Shown here: piece by piece, positions 1,623 to 46,300 of the stretch
Position numbering within the stretch: position 1 is the stretch's first letter
Layout: every line of letters begins with the position of its first letter
From: Candidatus Liptonbacteria bacterium
GTDB lineage: Bacteria; Patescibacteriota; Minisyncoccia; UBA6257; 2-01-FULL-56-20
Length of the DNA: 64,000 nucleotides
Reading direction: 5' to 3'
Assembly (NCBI GenBank): GCA_016204335.1
Contig: JACQKU010000008.1
Span: forward strand, 10,913-74,912
Position numbers and translations under genes: made by a program
The notes under the pieces: model-generated
Databases searched by the model: none
Told to the model about the DNA's origin: nothing
The model's input: the letters and a program-made list of their open reading frames with translations, nothing else

Positions 1623-1740
1623 CCCCCACACCAATGCCGTTTGTGCCGCGGGAGGGATTCGAACCCTCATGACCTTGCGGCCGCTAGCTCCTGAAGCTAG
1701 TGCGTCTGCCGATTCCGCCACCGCGGCATTGGTGTGGGGG
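1623..1740. repeat. Perfect 16-bp inverted repeat (CCCCCACACCAATGCC / GGCATTGGTGTGGGGG) bracketing the tRNA-Leu and extending its acceptor stem
   Basis: 1623-1638 and 1725-1740 are exact reverse complements. Additional G-rich hairpins lie at 1560-1620 and 1757-1800. Confidence 0.7.
1644..1727 (-). tRNA. tRNA-Leu (anticodon CAG), type II tRNA with long variable arm
   Basis: Reverse complement folds as acceptor GCCGCGG/CCGCGGC, D arm, anticodon stem CUAGC/GCUAG with loop UUCAGGA (anticodon CAG), variable stem GGCC/GGUC, T arm GAGGG-UUCGAAU-CCCUC, discriminator A. CCA is not encoded. Confidence 0.9.
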
Positions 1741-4419: not shown

Positions 4420-5832
4420 TTAGGAGGGGGATAGAAAATTCTTGTTGCGCCGGACGCGGTGGAAGCGGATGGCGAAGTTATGGGTTTCGGTAATCACGGT
4501 CGGAATGATTTTTTGGAGCTCGGGCGGCGCTTCGCCAAGTTCTTTCGGATTTTTTTCCAGGCCGTAGACGAGCCGTCCGGGTTTTCCCAAAGAAAGAACG
4601 CGGATTTTTTTCGCGGCTTCGAACTGCCCGACAATTTCTTTCGCGGCGTTGAATTGCGCGAGGCCGCCGTCAATAATCATCATGTCGGGATACGGCCACT
4701 CCGGATGGTTCAGCCGCCGCGCCAAAGTTTCTTTTATTGCCGCCGGGTCGTCCGATGGTTTCGCGCTTCTGATTATGAATTTCCGCCAGAATTCTTTTCG
4801 CGGCCGTAGCGCAGTTTCGTTTCCGCTCGCGGCGGAAAATTCCCACGCGGTCATTCCCGCGACTGTTTCTTTGCCGGAAAGATGGGATATGTCGTAGCCC
4901 TCTATCCGAATCGCGGACTCACGCTGACTTGACCCTTCGACACGGCTCCCGTTCGAGGGCCTGAGCGGCCCCTCAGGGCTAGTCGAAGGCAGGGCAGGCG
5001 CGGAATCACGCGGACTATTTTCTGCGTATGTCTGCGTATGGTCTGCGTCACTCAGCGTTTCCAGAAAGTCGCGGTGCGCGAGGATTTTTTCAAGCGCCTC
5101 TTGCTCTCCGGGTTTGAGATTTTTTGCGAATTTTTTTATGGGTTTTCCGATAAGGAAGTTCTTTACGATAATTATATTTTTTCGATATGCGGTTATCTGT
5201 TTTTGAGTCGATGAACTTCCTTTTCGACAACAAAATCCGCCGCAATTTCCGATTTGCGCGTTGAGGCACAGCCGGAGATGCGGTTTTGGACAGGTGCAAT
5301 AAGGGAAATTCCTCCGGAGCATCCGGAGAACCAGTTTCAAAGCGCGGCCTTCGGTGAAGGGGCCGATGGAATTGGCAAGCGGTAGATGGTAGGTGGTAGG
5401 TAGTAGGTTTTTGTGAGTGACAAAAATACGTGGGAATTTTTCTTCGCTAATCGCCGCATAGAAATAGCTTTTGTCGTCGCGCCAGAGGACGTTATACGGC
5501 GGATGAAGCGTTTTAATCAGTTTTGCTTCTTCAATGAGCGCCTCGATTTCTGAGCGGAGAGGAATAAGTTTTAGATGAGTGGCGTTTTCTCGGAGACGTT
5601 CGCTTTTGCCGTCTGCGCCCTTTAGGTAGGATTGCAGGCGGTTTTTCAGGTTGGACGCCTTGCCGATATAGAGAGGTTTTTTGCCAGGCAGTAGAAATGC
5701 GACTTTCTTTGAATTTTTCGCTCGCCGTTGGCGAGCAGTCGCATTTTCACTGCCTGGTCCATAAAAAATATAAACGCCGGGCGTTTTCGGCGCGGTTTTT
5801 ATTTTTTCGCTGATTTTCTTCCAAGAGTTCAC
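4420..5832 (-). CDS. uvrC: UvrC-like excinuclease (GIY-YIG N-terminal domain plus UvrC endonuclease domain), short C-terminus, carrying two in-frame insertions
   Basis: GVYIFYG...LYIGKASNLKNRLQSY (GIY-YIG), HPPYNVLWRDDKSYFY, and RIEGYDISHLSGKETVAGM (UvrC C-domain motif). Extra segments at 5684-5767 and about 4912-5052 interrupt conserved spacing. Confidence 0.7.
   Translation of the reverse strand: MNSWKKISEKIKTAPKTPGVYIFYGPGSENATARQRRAKNSKKVAFLLPGKKPLYIGKASNLKNRLQSYLKGADGKSERLRENATHLKLIPLRSEIEALIEEAKLIKTLHPPYNVLWRDDKSYFYAAISEEKFPRIFVTHKNLLPTTYHLPLANSIGPFTEGRALKLVLRMLRRNFPYCTCPKPHLRLCLNAQIGNCGGFCCRKGSSSTQKQITAYRKNIIIVKNFLIGKPIKKFAKNLKPGEQEALEKILAHRDFLETLSDADHTQTYAENSPRDSAPALPSTSPEGPLRPSNGSRVEGSSQRESAIRIEGYDISHLSGKETVAGMTAWEFSAASGNETALRPRKEFWRKFIIRSAKPSDDPAAIKETLARRLNHPEWPYPDMMIIDGGLAQFNAAKEIVGQFEAAKKIRVLSLGKPGRLVYGLEKNPKELGEAPPELQKIIPTVITETHNFAIRFHRVRRNKNFLSPS
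4912..5052. repeat. GC-rich in-frame insertion within uvrC containing three tandem TCTGCGTATG-like 10-mers and short inverted repeats
   Basis: The region encodes SDADHTQTYAENSPRDSAPALPSTSPEGPLRPSNGSRVEGSSQRESA between conserved UvrC blocks. Composition is clearly higher in GC than the flanks. Repeats tctgcgtatg / tctgcgtatgg / tctgcgtcact. Confidence 0.5.
5684..5767. repeat. Palindromic element family B copy 1 (TIR CCAGGCAGTAGAAATGCGAC...GTCGCATTTTCACTGCCTGG), 84 nt, in-frame inside uvrC GIY-YIG domain
   Basis: Near-perfect 20-nt terminal inverted repeats. Related copies at 26456-26560 and 44778-44904. Confidence 0.6.
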
Positions 5833-5885: not shown

Positions 5886-5941
5886 CAAAAGTTCTTCTCT
5901 ACAATCCTTACGATCGTAAAATTTGTAGAGAAGAACTTTTG
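5886..5941. promoter_or_regulatory. 19-bp perfect inverted repeat (CAAAAGTTCTTCTCTACAA...TTGTAGAGAAGAACTTTTG) with loop containing palindrome TTACGATCGTAA, in the uvrC upstream region
   Basis: Read directly from sequence. A CTTACGATCGTAAG palindrome recurs at 20066-20079 upstream of the GDPD gene. Confidence 0.55.
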
Positions 5942-6020: not shown

Positions 6021-6248
6021 TTACGACTTTACGAGCCGTAGCTTGATGGTTGCCAGGCTCTTTCCGGGGAGATCGGCTTTTTCTCGAGCGAGTACTTCGA
6101 TTTTTGCCTGGCACTTCCGTCCATCGGTGCAGATGATGTCGATGATCTCGTCGATACCCTCACGAACAGGAAGGGTCGCGAACACAGTCGTTGCTCTTCC
6201 TTCCTGGATCCAGCCGAAGATCATTTGGGATACTTCCAAGGTCGCCAC
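6021..6248 (-). CDS. Hypothetical small protein (75 aa)
   Basis: ORF followed by a terminator-like hairpin. No family recognised. Sits in a locally GC-richer segment. Confidence 0.3.
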   Translation of the reverse strand: MATLEVSQMIFGWIQEGRATTVFATLPVREGIDEIIDIICTDGRKCQAKIEVLAREKADLPGKSLATIKLRLVKS

Positions 6249-8921: not shown

Positions 8922-10445
8922 ATGGAAATTTCCATTCCGGCAGTTATCGGAGGGTTGGTTTTGGGTTTGCTCGTCGGGTACTTCGCGCGGCAGTTCTTTG
9001 CGGCGCGGCAGGCAGAGTCGGTTGAACATAAAAGCAGGCGGAAAGTCGAAGACGCGGAAGCGCAGGCCAGAAAAGTCGTTTTAAGCGCGGAGGAAAAAGC
9101 CGCTTCGATTCTCGCCGAGTCAAAAGAAGAGAGGAAAAAGCGCGAAGAGGAAATTAGGCAATCGGAAAAACATCTTCTCCAGCGCGAGGAGATTCTCGAC
9201 AAGCGGCTTTCTTCCATCGGCGAGGAAGAACAGACAATTAAAAACAAGACCGAAACTCTTAAGGCGAAAGAAGCGGAAGTCGCGGAACTGAAAAATAAAA
9301 TTCAGAGCGAGTTCGAAAAAATAAGCGGCCTTTCGCGCGAAGAGGCGCGTCAGGAGTTGTTCCGCGAAGTCAAAGAAAACAACCATAAGGAACTTGCCGA
9401 ACTTCTTCAAAAGTTCGACAAGGAACGGCGCGACGAGATTGAAAAGAAGTCGCTCGATATTCTGACGGTCGCACTTCAGCGCTACGCGCGCTCGCACGTT
9501 TCCGAACTTACCACGACGGTTTTTCCGCTCGGCGACGAGGAATTGAAAGGAAAAATAATCGGACGCGAAGGCAGGAACATTCGCGCGCTCGAACGCGCGA
9601 CCGGCGTGGAATTCGTGATTGACGAAACGCCGGACAGCGTCGTCATTTCCTCATTCGACCCGTTCCGGAGAGAAATCGCCAGAATCGCGCTCGGGAAATT
9701 GATAAAAGACGGCAGGATTCAGCCGGCTAAAATCGAAGAAAAAGTCGAGGAGGCGAAAGAGGAACTGAACAAACGAGTGCTTGAAATCGGAGAAGAAGCG
9801 TCGGCGGAAGTGGGAATTTACGATTTGCCGAAAGAGATACTACAATTGCTGGGCCGGCTGAATTTCCGCACCAGTTTCGGCCAGAATGTTTTGACGCACT
9901 CCGTTGAAATGGCGCATCTCGCGAGCATGATTGCGGCTGACCTAGGTCTGAACGTTCAGGTTGCCAAAAAGGGAGCGCTTCTTCACGACATCGGCAAAGC
10001 AATCGACCACGAGGTCGAAGGAACGCATGTGGAGATAGGGATGAAGCTTCTCAAAAAATACGAGATTGACGAGAAGGTGATTCAGGCGATGCAGTCGCAC
10101 CACGAAGAATATCCGTACGCGACTTCTGAGGCGTATGTCGTGACGGCGGTTGACGCGCTTTCTGCGGCGCGGCCCGGCGCGCGGCGGGGAACCCTTGAAA
10201 ACTATATCAAGCGGCTTGGAGACCTTGAAAAAATAGCCGGCGAGTTCCCGGCGGTCAAAAATGCCTATGCCATCTCGGCGGGACGCGAGCTTCGTGTATT
10301 CGTCATTCCGGAAAAGATAGACGATTTCGGAGCGCTGGAGCTCGCGAGGCAGATTGCCAACCGCATCCAATCCGAGTTAAAATATCCGGGCGAGATTAAA
10401 GTAAATGTAATCCGTGAAATGCGGGCGGTGGAATACGCAAAGTAA
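8922..10445 (+). CDS. rny: Ribonuclease Y (N-terminal TM, coiled coil, KH and HD domains)
   Basis: 507 aa; TM anchor, KH region GREGRNIRALE, HD motif LLHDIGKAIDHEVEGTHVEIG. Confidence 0.9.
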   Translation: MEISIPAVIGGLVLGLLVGYFARQFFAARQAESVEHKSRRKVEDAEAQARKVVLSAEEKAASILAESKEERKKREEEIRQSEKHLLQREEILDKRLSSIGEEEQTIKNKTETLKAKEAEVAELKNKIQSEFEKISGLSREEARQELFREVKENNHKELAELLQKFDKERRDEIEKKSLDILTVALQRYARSHVSELTTTVFPLGDEELKGKIIGREGRNIRALERATGVEFVIDETPDSVVISSFDPFRREIARIALGKLIKDGRIQPAKIEEKVEEAKEELNKRVLEIGEEASAEVGIYDLPKEILQLLGRLNFRTSFGQNVLTHSVEMAHLASMIAADLGLNVQVAKKGALLHDIGKAIDHEVEGTHVEIGMKLLKKYEIDEKVIQAMQSHHEEYPYATSEAYVVTAVDALSAARPGARRGTLENYIKRLGDLEKIAGEFPAVKNAYAISAGRELRVFVIPEKIDDFGALELARQIANRIQSELKYPGEIKVNVIREMRAVEYAK

Positions 10446-10547
10446 TCGCGAATAATGCGAATATAGGCGAAATAATGCGAATAAGATGCATTATTTTCTG
10501 GACAAATTCGCATTATTTGCTAAAATTAGCATTATTAGCGAACACTC

Positions 10548-20926: not shown

Positions 20927-20950
20927 AATAGCTACGAAATACGAAACAAT

Positions 20951-20976
20951 ACGAATATACGAATTCGTATATTCGT
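20951..20976. promoter_or_regulatory. Perfect 26-bp AT-rich palindrome ACGAATATACGAATTCGTATATTCGT nested in a 67-nt imperfect palindrome (20930-20996) between the GDPD gene and the nucleotidyltransferase paralog
   Basis: Read directly. Outer arms are GCTACGAA / TTCGTAGC. Confidence 0.55.
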
Positions 20977-21004
20977 AAAAATTCGTAATTCGTAGCCCAG
21001 TATC

Positions 21005-24336: not shown

Positions 24337-24437
24337 GGCGAGAAAATATGAAAATATTTTCGAGACAAAACCAAGTATTCCATACTACGAAATATCTGCT
24401 TGCTATAACCTGTGAATTACGAAACTCCTCTGCAACC

Positions 24438-24537
24438 GTCATTGCGAGGACCGCGAGCGAAGCATGGCGGGACGAAGCAATCCAGTAAACGATATGTAAG
24501 AACTGGATTGCCGCGCCCCTTTGGGGCTCGCAATGAC
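24438..24537. repeat. Palindromic element family A copy 1 (TIR GTCATTGCGAG...CTCGCAATGAC), nested inside a longer IR GAATTACGAAAC / GTTTCGTAATTC (24411-24561)
   Basis: 11-nt perfect termini plus internal GCAATCCAG...CTGGATTGC palindrome. Confidence 0.6.
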
Positions 24538-24600
24538 GACAAAAAAGTGTTTCGTAATTCAAAGTATAAAGTCCAAGCAAAAGGCAACGGAAAATATTTA

Positions 24601-26427: not shown

Positions 26428-26455
26428 TTTTTTTCCCAAGCTTTATCCGGTTAGC

Positions 26456-26560
26456 CAGGTAGTGAAAATTCGACTTGCAGGGTAGCGAAGCCAAGCTCTA
26501 CCACCCTGCTTGTCGCCAACTGCGGCAGATAAGTCTTTCAGTCGAATTTCTACTACCTGG
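26456..26560. repeat. Palindromic element family B copy 3 (CCAGGTAGTGAAAATTCGAC...GTCGAATTTCTACTACCTGG)
   Basis: 20-nt near-perfect inverted termini. Intergenic. Followed by a partial motif-C-like palindrome at about 26636-26690. Confidence 0.5.
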
Positions 26561-44511: not shown

Positions 44512-44777
44512 AGTGTAATTATGGGTAATTACAATTTGGTGTCAAGGGGTGGCTGTGGATAAACGTATTGGGTTAACAAAATGCCGATATAAGGCCTGTT
44601 TTATTGCTTATCCAGCCGGATTTTGCTAATATACGGCAATGATAAAGAAAAAATCTTCAAAAAAGCGGGTGCCAGAAAAAGAAGCGGGGAACGCCGACAT
44701 AGAAAAGCGGAAGGAGGGGGAGCGGAAAAAAGTTATGGAACAGTTGCGCGCGCTGGGATATATTTAGGGAACCAATG

Positions 44778-44904
44778 CCAGGCAGTAGAACTGCGACATT
44801 GGCAGTTCGTAATTTCAATGATTCATATCGCGAGAAAGGTCTTTTTTACTTTAGAAACTTGTAACAAGTCAGCCGCAGGCTGAAGTCGCAGTTTCACTGC
44901 CTGG
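44778..44904. repeat. Palindromic element family B copy 2 (CCAGGCAGTAGAACTGCGAC...GTCGCAGTTTCACTGCCTGG)
   Basis: Ends 2 nt before the ATG of the sulfatase-like gene. Confidence 0.5.
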
Positions 44905-44905
44905 T

Positions 44906-46300
44906 ATGCCTTCACAGAAAAGGAGAACAAAGCCCAACGTCATTTTTATTGTCATCGACGGACTGCGCGCCGACCATCTCGGCTCGTTCGGCTACCGCCG
45001 CCCCACGAGCAGATTTTTGGATGCGTTCGCGAAAAACTCGGTTAATTTCCGTTCGCACTTTTCAAACAGTTCTCAATCGGCGCCGGGATTTTTTTCTATT
45101 TTTGCATCGGCATATCCTTTTATGCGGAGCGATTGGACGACGACCAAGGGTCCTTATGAATTTTTAAGTGAAGTTTTTCGAAAAAACGGTTACAAAACTG
45201 CAGGATTCGCCTGTTCTCCTTATATCTCTTCATTCTTCGGCTATGACCGCGGGTTCGACGATTTTTATTATTCCGGATGCCATGATGATTCGGATGCGGT
45301 GAAAAAAACCATAAAGTCGACATTACCCTCGCGGATGTTCGAAATGCTCAAGAAGTTTGTTAAAACCACCACTATCGGAAAAATGATGAATCGTATCAGA
45401 TTCCGTTTTTTAATGCAGCCCGCTTACAGCAATTCGGAAGCAATCAATGAAATCGTGGAAAATCATCTTTCTCGTAGCGATTGCAATGACAGGCCTCTTT
45501 TCGCGTGGATCCACTACTTGGATGCGCATGTTCCTTTTAGAAGCAAAAAAAATGATATTCGGGCGGTGGGAGGACGCTTTGGCGCGCGGCGCGCAAATTT
45601 TTTGGACCGTAAAGTATTCAGCTTTACACTCCTCAATCCTTTTGTCGATGAAGAACGGATGACCGTTCAAGAACTCAAAGACCTTGAGCTATGTTATGAC
45701 GCGCAAATTTACCGCGCCGATCGCAATCTCGAAAAATTGTTTTCAATGCTTTCGGAGAACGGTATCTCCCGGGAGAATTCCGTAATCGCGATTACCGCCG
45801 ACCACGGAGAGGGATTCGGGGAACACTTCGGCATAGGGCATACTATGCGTCTTTATGATGAGTTGGTGCATGTTCCTTTCTTTTTATCAGTACCGGGAGG
45901 AAAACCGCGCGAAGTTTATGATCTCACCAATCATATCGATATTGTGCCGACACTCGCCGCATCCGCGGGAATTTCTTTGCGAAGCCGTTTCATCAAAGGC
46001 AAAAATGTGCTTAAGGGTTCGGATACAAAGTATGTCTTTAGCGAAGTCGCGCCGAACCTCGGCGGCATGCTCTCTAAAATAGATTTTTCAAGAAGCGTGT
46101 TTTCCGTCCGCGGAAAGGAATGGAAATATATCAAGGATTATGCAAGGGAAAGAGAGGAACTTTACCATTTATCGGAAGATCCTGACGAGTTGAAAGATCT
46201 GTCGCAAACGGAAGTAGACGTTAAAAACAAACTTTGGAATTTGTTGAGAGTACATATCAAGAGGAAAACGAAAGCGGTGCCGTATCTTAAGGATGTCTAG
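44906..46300 (+). CDS. Sulfatase-like hydrolase/transferase (alkaline phosphatase superfamily); canonical C/S-x-P-x-R sulfatase motif not evident
   Basis: NVIFIVIDGLRADHLGSFGY (metal site), TADHGEGFGEHF and overall sulfatase-domain layout, but NSSQSAPG in place of CxPxR. Confidence 0.65.
   Translation: MPSQKRRTKPNVIFIVIDGLRADHLGSFGYRRPTSRFLDAFAKNSVNFRSHFSNSSQSAPGFFSIFASAYPFMRSDWTTTKGPYEFLSEVFRKNGYKTAGFACSPYISSFFGYDRGFDDFYYSGCHDDSDAVKKTIKSTLPSRMFEMLKKFVKTTTIGKMMNRIRFRFLMQPAYSNSEAINEIVENHLSRSDCNDRPLFAWIHYLDAHVPFRSKKNDIRAVGGRFGARRANFLDRKVFSFTLLNPFVDEERMTVQELKDLELCYDAQIYRADRNLEKLFSMLSENGISRENSVIAITADHGEGFGEHFGIGHTMRLYDELVHVPFFLSVPGGKPREVYDLTNHIDIVPTLAASAGISLRSRFIKGKNVLKGSDTKYVFSEVAPNLGGMLSKIDFSRSVFSVRGKEWKYIKDYAREREELYHLSEDPDELKDLSQTEVDVKNKLWNLLRVHIKRKTKAVPYLKDV

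Follow-up and report, generated by a model that had tools for sequence, protein, structure and literature searches.

Two in-frame, repeat-derived insertions in the uvrC gene of a Candidatus Liptonbacteria bacterium and a family of small inverted-repeat elements in Patescibacteria

The uvrC gene analyzed here is located in a 64,000 nt stretch (the window) of contig JACQKU010000008.1 from a Candidatus Liptonbacteria bacterium, a tiny groundwater-type member of the Patescibacteria, or candidate phyla radiation (CPR). The gene carries two in-frame, repeat-derived and lineage-specific insertions, both of which preserve the reading frame. This had been proposed in a preliminary description of the window, and the observation holds. 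The favored explanation, with a probability of about 0.8, is that uvrC was colonized twice by small non-coding palindromic elements, which survived because they entered tolerant parts of the protein and kept the frame. Insert 1 would be a short, 74-nt member of a non-autonomous family with terminal inverted repeats, similar to MITEs (miniature transposable elements with inverted repeats), that is spread in Patescibacteria. It would simply be translated, adding about 25 residues at the beta1-beta2 turn and leaving the catalytic residues intact. Insert 2 would have begun as an ACGCWGA/TCNGCGT heptad-repeat palindrome that entered the interdomain linker and was translated as a disordered linker, and that grew at a later stage through an 87-nt segment, a GC-rich hairpin between 18-nt direct repeats.

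The positions of the gene and of insert 1 are:

4420–5832, minus strand: uvrC, 470 aa, with GIY-YIG, Cys-rich middle and RNase-H-like nuclease domains and no C-terminal helix-hairpin-helix (HhH)2 domain
5684–5757, minus strand: insert 1, a 74-nt short-form inverted-repeat element, which with base 5683 encodes P26–G50 (PGSENATARQRRAKNSKKVAFLLPG)
5737–5757, minus strand: 5' arm of insert 1 in gene sense, CCAGGCAGTGAAAATGCGACT
5684–5704, minus strand: 3' arm of insert 1 in gene sense, AGTCGCATTTCTACTGCCTGG, with a G-T wobble and an A-C mismatch at arm positions 10–11
5720–5736, minus strand: inner GC hairpin GCTCGCC-AAC-GGCGAGC, adjoining the 5' arm, from the fold and the family alignment

The gene product is identical to P0001, a protein from a metagenome-assembled genome (MAG) of 'Candidatus Liptonbacteria bacterium'. 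It has Pfam profile matches to GIY-YIG and UvrC_RNaseH_dom; the latter region, residues 307–455, is covered by PF08459 (E = 9e-23) and is also matched by PDB 2NRT. Both the GIY-YIG and nuclease parts match solved UvrC domains in the PDB. The NCBIfam uvrC profile (TIGR00194) scores 212.8 bits, which is under its equivalog cut-off of 285.45. No (HhH)2 domain is found in the window UvrC, and the protein stops about 4 residues past the nuclease-domain match. Close orthologs (P0001–P0120) are all 380–493 aa in length and all lack the C-terminal (HhH)2, and the window protein is a short CPR form of UvrC. Alignment A1, which consists of 33 UvrC orthologs, shows no variation at the GIY-YIG catalytic positions Y21, Y55, K58, R65, E102 and N114. 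A Cys/His-rich block (C179, C181, H185, C189, C197, C201 and C202) is also invariant in the UvrC orthologs of the CPR clade.

Insert 1 together with the extra base 5683 forms 25 codons that are in frame, residues P26–G50. These residues separate GVYIFYG from LYIGKAS, where the preliminary description had placed about 20 extra residues. It had given the element as 5684–5767; the start stands, and the length is 74 nt and not 84 nt. The inverted termini are likewise present, although they are 21 nt each rather than 20 and are imperfect, with 90% complementarity and 32 nt between them. The RNA fold of the insert has a delta G of -42.9 kcal/mol (z = -7.95), and the layout with the inner GC hairpin is also present in full-length members of the family. 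This hairpin was considered as a transcription terminator and rejected, as no T-run is adjacent to it in either orientation. When up to 3 mismatches are allowed, the window has 4 occurrences of the terminal 21-mer, and shuffles give an expectation of 0.00. A relaxed scan of the window detects exactly three elements, at 5684–5757, 26455–26560 and 44778–44904, in agreement with the earlier count of two further copies. The three are alike in their termini only; the interiors are unrelated in sequence.

In the protein, insert 1 falls in the turn that joins beta1 and beta2 of the GIY-YIG domain. As long as the insert is in place, matches to this domain do not begin before residue 53. When residues 26–50 are deleted, residues 5–94 align to T. 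maritima UvrC (1YCZ) with E = 1.2e-18, and a 1-residue gap falls exactly at the insertion point (FYGK.KPLYIGKA compared with FKNKGVPIYIGKA). An AlphaFold2 model with a mean predicted local distance difference test (pLDDT) score of 75 lengthens beta1 and beta2 (strands 19–26 and 51–59) and has a helix at 31–40 (pLDDT ~64). On this basis, and with the catalytic positions invariant, the enzyme probably stays functional with its inserts, whose effect would be neutral.

Insert 2 is a composite with the following parts:

4912–5058, minus strand: insert 2, 147 nt, encoding T259–A307 (49 residues), a low-complexity linker between the middle and nuclease domains
5021–5058, minus strand: heptad array, the left arm of a palindromic element, ACGCTGA and then three copies of ACGCAGA at 10–11 nt spacing
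4999–5016, minus strand: right-arm unit copy 1, AGTCCGCGTGATTCCGCG, encoding SPRDSA, which pairs with the heptad array in the fold
4930–4998, minus strand: GC-rich core with its own hairpin, CCTTCGAC...GTCGAAGG, inner CCTGAG...CTCAGG
4912–4929, minus strand: right-arm unit copy 2, AGTCAGCGTGAGTCCGCG, encoding SQRESA, a direct repeat of copy 1 at 16 of 18 nt

This segment replaces a short variable linker in the orthologs, as seen in alignment A1 and in the ortholog DNA. Its GC content, 63–66% at 4900–5050 compared with ~45–58% elsewhere in uvrC, and its location between conserved UvrC blocks agree with what had been noted before. The start at 4912 is also retained; the end moves from 5052 to 5058. 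Three tandem repeats had been described. The repeats are real, and they are part of a larger arrangement: a palindrome with a GC-rich hairpin core and 18-nt direct repeats. Tandem Repeats Finder reports 2.6 copies of the 10-nt unit TCTGCGTATGG at 5021–5048, and a regular-expression search finds four ACGCWGA heptads across 5021–5058. Right-arm unit copy 2 is 87 nt (29 codons) downstream of copy 1, and the fold of the whole insert supports this layout (z = -2.4). The linker is predicted to be disordered, with AlphaFold2 pLDDT values below 50 for residues 256–304.

The heptad palindrome is present at the same linker site in P0002, P0005, P0007, P0010, P0018, P0022, P0023 and P0026, where it is translated as ...TQTNAD...SAFSLRQSA. 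It is found at another UvrC site in P0010 in alignment A1, and at unrelated loci (L053, 5470–5530, and L045, 4583–4670). To judge from these positions, the ACGCWGA heptad palindrome constitutes a dispersed repeat family. The GC-rich core has no other copy detectable by blastn in the 0.9 Mb of locus DNA compared. Three intergenic palindromes in the window, at 20931–20996, 10441–10546 and 24403–24571, are made of short repeated units of TACGAA and GCGAA type. They resemble the heptad architecture but are A/T-rich, and may be additional repeat families.

The termini of insert 1 lead to a family that extends over many Patescibacteria. A degenerate pattern of the arms matches at least 118 stretches in a collection of species-representative genomes. 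Nearly all paired matches come from MAGs of Patescibacteria, including Parcubacteria, Portnoy-, Yanofsky-, Lipton-, Terry- and Gottesmanbacteria, and matches outside CPR are single unpaired arms. A total of 124 unique paired copies were recovered, with lengths of 67–323 nt and a mode of ~127–139 nt. The size classes are short (67–86 nt), main (~115–155 nt) and, in a few copies, 190–323 nt; all are too small for an insertion sequence. Typical copies end in 20-nt imperfect inverted repeats, CCAGGTAGTGAAAATTCGAC...GTCGAATTTCTACTACCTGG, and the near constancy of these termini is partly imposed by the search pattern. The same interior occurs at different loci, e.g., L051 and L071, and twice inside L103. 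Some genomes have 2–3 copies per 8 kb, e.g., Parcubacteria GW2011_GWB1_40_14 (loci L022 and L063). The family has several characteristics of a MITE: terminal inverted repeats, a target duplication (at the family level), small size, no coding capacity, and a dispersed distribution with filled and empty sites. The copies would have been moved by an enzyme acting in trans.

Copies within open reading frames (ORFs) are rare, about 2 of 124, and open read-through is uncommon. The copy at L044 (1774–1847) is the second such case. It is also 74 nt and has an intact CAAA duplication; 74 nt plus the 4-nt duplication make 78 nt, or 26 codons, and the frame is therefore kept in the 547-aa ORF. It lies between a kinase-like N-terminal part and a P-loop part, and its arms carry compensatory variants (CCCAG/CTGGG and ATTTT/AAAAT). 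A role of the elements as leader peptides or N-terminal extensions was rejected: element lengths have no 3-nt periodicity and read-through is rare. A scan of viral contigs for carriage by phages gave one single arm only. With Rfam 15 at gathering thresholds, the only match in the window is a tRNA and none is at the elements; in three loci with 5 full-length copies there is no match at the elements at E values up to 1.

The two other copies in the window are:

26455–26560, no strand assigned: family copy 2, 106 nt, intergenic, opposite orientation, with TTAG repeats at 26451–26454 and 26561–26564
44778–44904, no strand assigned: family copy 3, 127 nt, on a sulfatase gene's start codon (ATG at 44906), with AATG at 44774–44777 and TATG at 44905–44908

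Copy 3 has an empty counterpart. The window reads ...CCAATG[127 nt]TATGCC... and the ortholog at L127 reads TTTAGAAAGCATATGCCC; L127 has a sulfatase ortholog of 72% identity and the same small upstream ORF, with no element. From this filled and empty pair of orthologous sites, copy 3 is an insertion at a start codon with a 4-nt duplication. The small ORF directly upstream of the sulfatase gene is rich in Lys and Glu, ends in ...EQLRALGYI* and is conserved in three genomes (window 44640–44768, L127 27–155 and L128 1329–1469).

A similar placement is common in the family. Identical 4-nt direct repeats flank 78 of the 124 copies, mostly CATA (37) and TATG (23). In 75 of the 124, an ORF of 60 codons or more begins at the flank's ATG and runs outward from the element, and when the element is removed in silico, this ATG is the first one past the upstream stop in 57 of the 75. 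The same holds for 9.8% of TATG sites overall and for 28% of those that lie outside long ORFs. The placement at start codons is approximately 3-fold over the expectation for non-genic TATG sites, and the orientation of the element relative to the downstream gene is biased 59:16. Duplication of the 4 nt at the start codon regenerates an ATG next to the ORF. In a logo built from the 75 reconstructed empty sites, T-ATG within A/T-rich surroundings is the only signal, and these sites have no Shine-Dalgarno-like enrichment. A typical copy is 115–155 nt in length, with a 4-nt duplication that is mostly TATG/CATA, positioned exactly on the start codon of a gene. The placement may reflect either targeting or survival.

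The uvrC site itself is also known in filled and empty form. The 25-residue insert is found only in P0001, P0002 and P0003 and is missing from 30 of the 33 aligned orthologs. Alignment with the orthologs, which had been suggested in the preliminary description, locates the insertion points, and most orthologs lack the segments. Empty alleles have the sequences TAT GAA AGA GAA AAT CCG (L122) and TAC GAA AGA CAG AAT CCC (L124), and relative to both the net insertion is 72 nt. P0002 (L121) and P0006 (L124), whose alleles come from SRR22388054 and SRR22388089, are proteins of 90% identity, and the site flanks are nearly identical in DNA. The differences between L121 and L124 are the element (78 nt compared with 6 nt), a 33-nt palindrome that is only in L124, and the linker element. 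Comparison of the same two alleles (alignment A3, columns ~330–500) also shows one block that is sharply more divergent in otherwise near-identical sequences. This mosaic divergence suggests allele exchange by recombination between lineages.

Several properties of insert 1 are points against colonization by a mobile element. No arm pair 0.6–5 kb apart with up to 4 mismatches is found in the 0.9 Mb of loci, i.e., there is no autonomous partner there, and there is no transposase or recombinase domain in the 50 of 58 window ORFs scanned with Pfam. The uvrC copy has no recognizable target duplication (TTTG compared with TCCA on the plus strand). Its net size of 72 nt falls short of 74 nt plus 4 nt, a difference that calls for additional small deletions; a duplication of 3 nt and one of 4 nt, with deletions of 5–6 nt, fit equally well. 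The presence of the insert conflicts with the gene tree, since P0002 is filled and P0006, at 90% identity, has no element and still shows AGA CAG, the ancestral codons. To account for this, either allele exchange or repeated gain is needed, and repeated insertion may be the alternative to exchange. In addition, arm codons for the same residue are identical at 10 of 11, 11 of 12 and 12 of 13 positions in the three comparisons, compared with 57–66% gene-wide. With few codons available, this scarcity of synonymous change is only suggestive of constraint on the arms. Taken with the compensatory changes in the stems, it is a hint that the hairpin is not just inert junk.

The stems are conserved in structure. 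In 81 distinct aligned arm pairs, 96.4% of cells are paired; double-sided changes are seen at 11 of the 19 pairs of the arms, and the observed values were reached by none of 500 shuffles. The irregularity at arm positions 10–11, a G-T wobble and an A-C mismatch, is kept in ~76 of the 81 aligned copies. For the three uvrC copies, 26 pairs are predicted, with 3 compensatory changes that include one in the inner GC hairpin. Only 9 of the 52 paired columns are variable, compared with 12 of 22 unpaired columns. Insert 1 could on this basis be a functional structured element under selection, with a 20-bp hairpin that acts as RNA or as single-stranded DNA and not as a passive passenger, for instance as an RNase III-type processing or stability site. 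At start codons its action would be on leader processing or translation initiation, and inside uvrC it would adjust expression. The compensatory change within a coding region whose loops diverge, the nearly unchanged arm codons, the retained irregularity, the orientation bias and the enrichment at start codons are all compatible with such a role, and processing by RNase III has been proposed for the Correia elements of Neisseria (PMC2229807). The one-sided changes, however, comprise 33 G-U and 27 A-C, with no sign of a strand-specific RNA structure. The arm covariation fits equally well with a single protein that recognizes the two ends, or with a hairpin in single-stranded DNA. The orientation bias can follow from the asymmetric TATG target, and no Rfam family matches. 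A functional role for insert 1 is considered unlikely, although it is the strongest competitor of passive colonization. A wider form of the proposal is equally doubtful: the CCAGG...CCTGG element would be a new kind of start-codon-homing mobile element, placed on the ATG of genes across Patescibacteria by its machinery or by strong selection, with a hairpin that works in gene expression. A working hairpin of this type, in leader processing or translation-initiation control, would explain compensatory stems even inside the uvrC coding sequence.

It is less probable again that different family members entered a hot spot independently to give the three filled uvrC alleles, with the apparent compensatory changes reflecting different sources. 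The conflict with the gene tree would be accounted for, and P0005 has a different short insert at the same point as insert 1; this could possibly be a remnant of the element, which is not convincing. All three copies, however, are exactly 74 nt, in the same orientation and frame, and are followed by the same altered codon, AAA. They have a related A-rich interior and GC hairpin in common and differ in this from the other short copies, L044 and L076. In addition, neither TATG/CATA nor CAAA, the targets usual for the family, lies immediately at the junction of this site. A search of metagenome contigs with the junction pattern for further filled uvrC alleles gave the P0003 contig only.

It is very improbable that the extra segments are native loops particular to this UvrC lineage, or artefacts of assembly. 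UvrC linker regions vary in length in many bacteria, and the GC-rich core of insert 2 has no second copy in the locus DNA; yet the termini of insert 1 are common to two other window copies and to more than 100 copies in other CPR genomes, the heptad palindrome of insert 2 is also at unrelated loci, and filled alleles are seen repeatedly in independent assemblies (NCBI, ENA, Logan and JGI). For insert 1 and the heptad part of insert 2 this explanation is already contradicted. The preliminary description had named native sequence in close relatives, or a lack of other copies, as what would speak against it; 30 of 33 orthologs are empty, and two window copies and at least 118 CPR stretches are known.

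The two inserts are not the only ones in this gene. Repeat-like inserts are present at ~12 positions across the 33 orthologs of alignment A1, and the same types of insert peptide (NPPHNRVMWGV / DPPHNGVMLGV, NPAPFD...KRCGV and IARRS..AKEG) are at differing sites in different orthologs. The palindrome of L124 (~825–857, alignment A3 columns 208–240) is perfect over 33 nt, CCCCCCACATAAC CGA GTTATGTGGGGGG, and is in frame as VNPPHNRVMWG. It is missing from the near-identical sister allele L121, and a peptide related to its product, DPPHNGVMLGV, is at another UvrC site in P0004 and P0005. A different, A/T-rich palindrome of 56 nt is at 5886–5941, between the start of uvrC and the end of an upstream minus-strand ORF (6021–6248). 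It is near-perfect, with 28-nt arms of 89% complementarity and no spacer, and could be a terminator or operator. Elsewhere in the window, a tRNA gene at 1644–1727 (minus strand) is enclosed by perfect inverted repeats of 17 nt at 1623–1639 and 1724–1740, and the region 8900–64000 is mostly a cluster of sugar-nucleotide, glycosyltransferase and methyltransferase genes (glycan biosynthesis).

The uvrC insertions were originally compared to Rickettsia palindromic elements. These palindromes of ~100–150 bp lie between genes and also form in-frame parts of conserved protein genes, which apparently tolerate them (PMC2229807). The analogy is sound as to behavior: the CPR elements are also small palindromes with terminal inverted repeats, and the uvrC and L044 copies are in frame inside protein genes. 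Membership in the Rickettsia family is not claimed. The host and the terminal sequence differ, as does the usual site; copies within ORFs are rare in the CPR family (~2 of 124), and the start-codon site with a 4-nt duplication is not a property of the Rickettsia elements. Correia elements are described as having terminal inverted repeats and target duplications, a short and a long form, and transcripts that fold into long stem-loops (PMC2229807). Correia/NEMIS elements are similar to the CPR family in that they are non-coding, ~100–155 bp in length with ~20–26 bp terminal inverted repeats, adjoin genes, generate target duplications and long stem-loop transcripts, and occur in a long and a short version, the difference being an internal segment. 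The differences are a 4-nt duplication (TATG/CATA) in place of TA, a position exactly on the ATG, other termini, and no integration host factor site or promoter identified in the CPR element.

Insertion-sequence-derived MITEs, e.g., MITEAba12 and RUP, also have terminal inverted repeats and a duplication, are non-coding and dispersed, and show filled and empty polymorphism. In contrast to these, no parent with matching termini was found for the CPR element in the 0.9 Mb of loci, and the CPR family spans many deep lineages with nearly constant termini, a constancy that comes partly from the search pattern. The hairpin repeats known as repetitive extragenic palindromic (REP) sequences and REPINs, associated with the RAYT transposase, likewise have two complementary halves. 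GTAG is the conserved 5' motif of REP sequences and is present in each CPR arm. However, the CPR arms are not themselves palindromes, the 4-nt duplication is clear, and no RAYT gene is among the window ORFs scanned. To our knowledge, a 4-nt target duplication is not expected for HUH/Y1 transposition, and we know of no bacterial MITE with start-codon placement and a TATG duplication. No published account of the CPR elements, or of the start-codon TATG habit, was found in the full-text literature, a coverage that leaves out subscription journals. The uvrC case is a known kind of event, and the family behind it is set apart because of its start-codon habit.

Patescibacteria genomes are very small and gene-dense, and still contain several families of palindromic mobile DNA inside essential genes. 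If the start-codon habit holds, gene calling and the statistics of protein length would be affected in CPR genomes, and the insertions would provide natural maps of insertion tolerance for proteins such as the GIY-YIG nuclease. It would also raise the question of how a 130-nt hairpin before the start codon relates to expression in organisms with little Shine-Dalgarno usage. The copies within ORFs that have compensatory stems represent a rare case, in which DNA or RNA structure and protein coding constrain the same bases.

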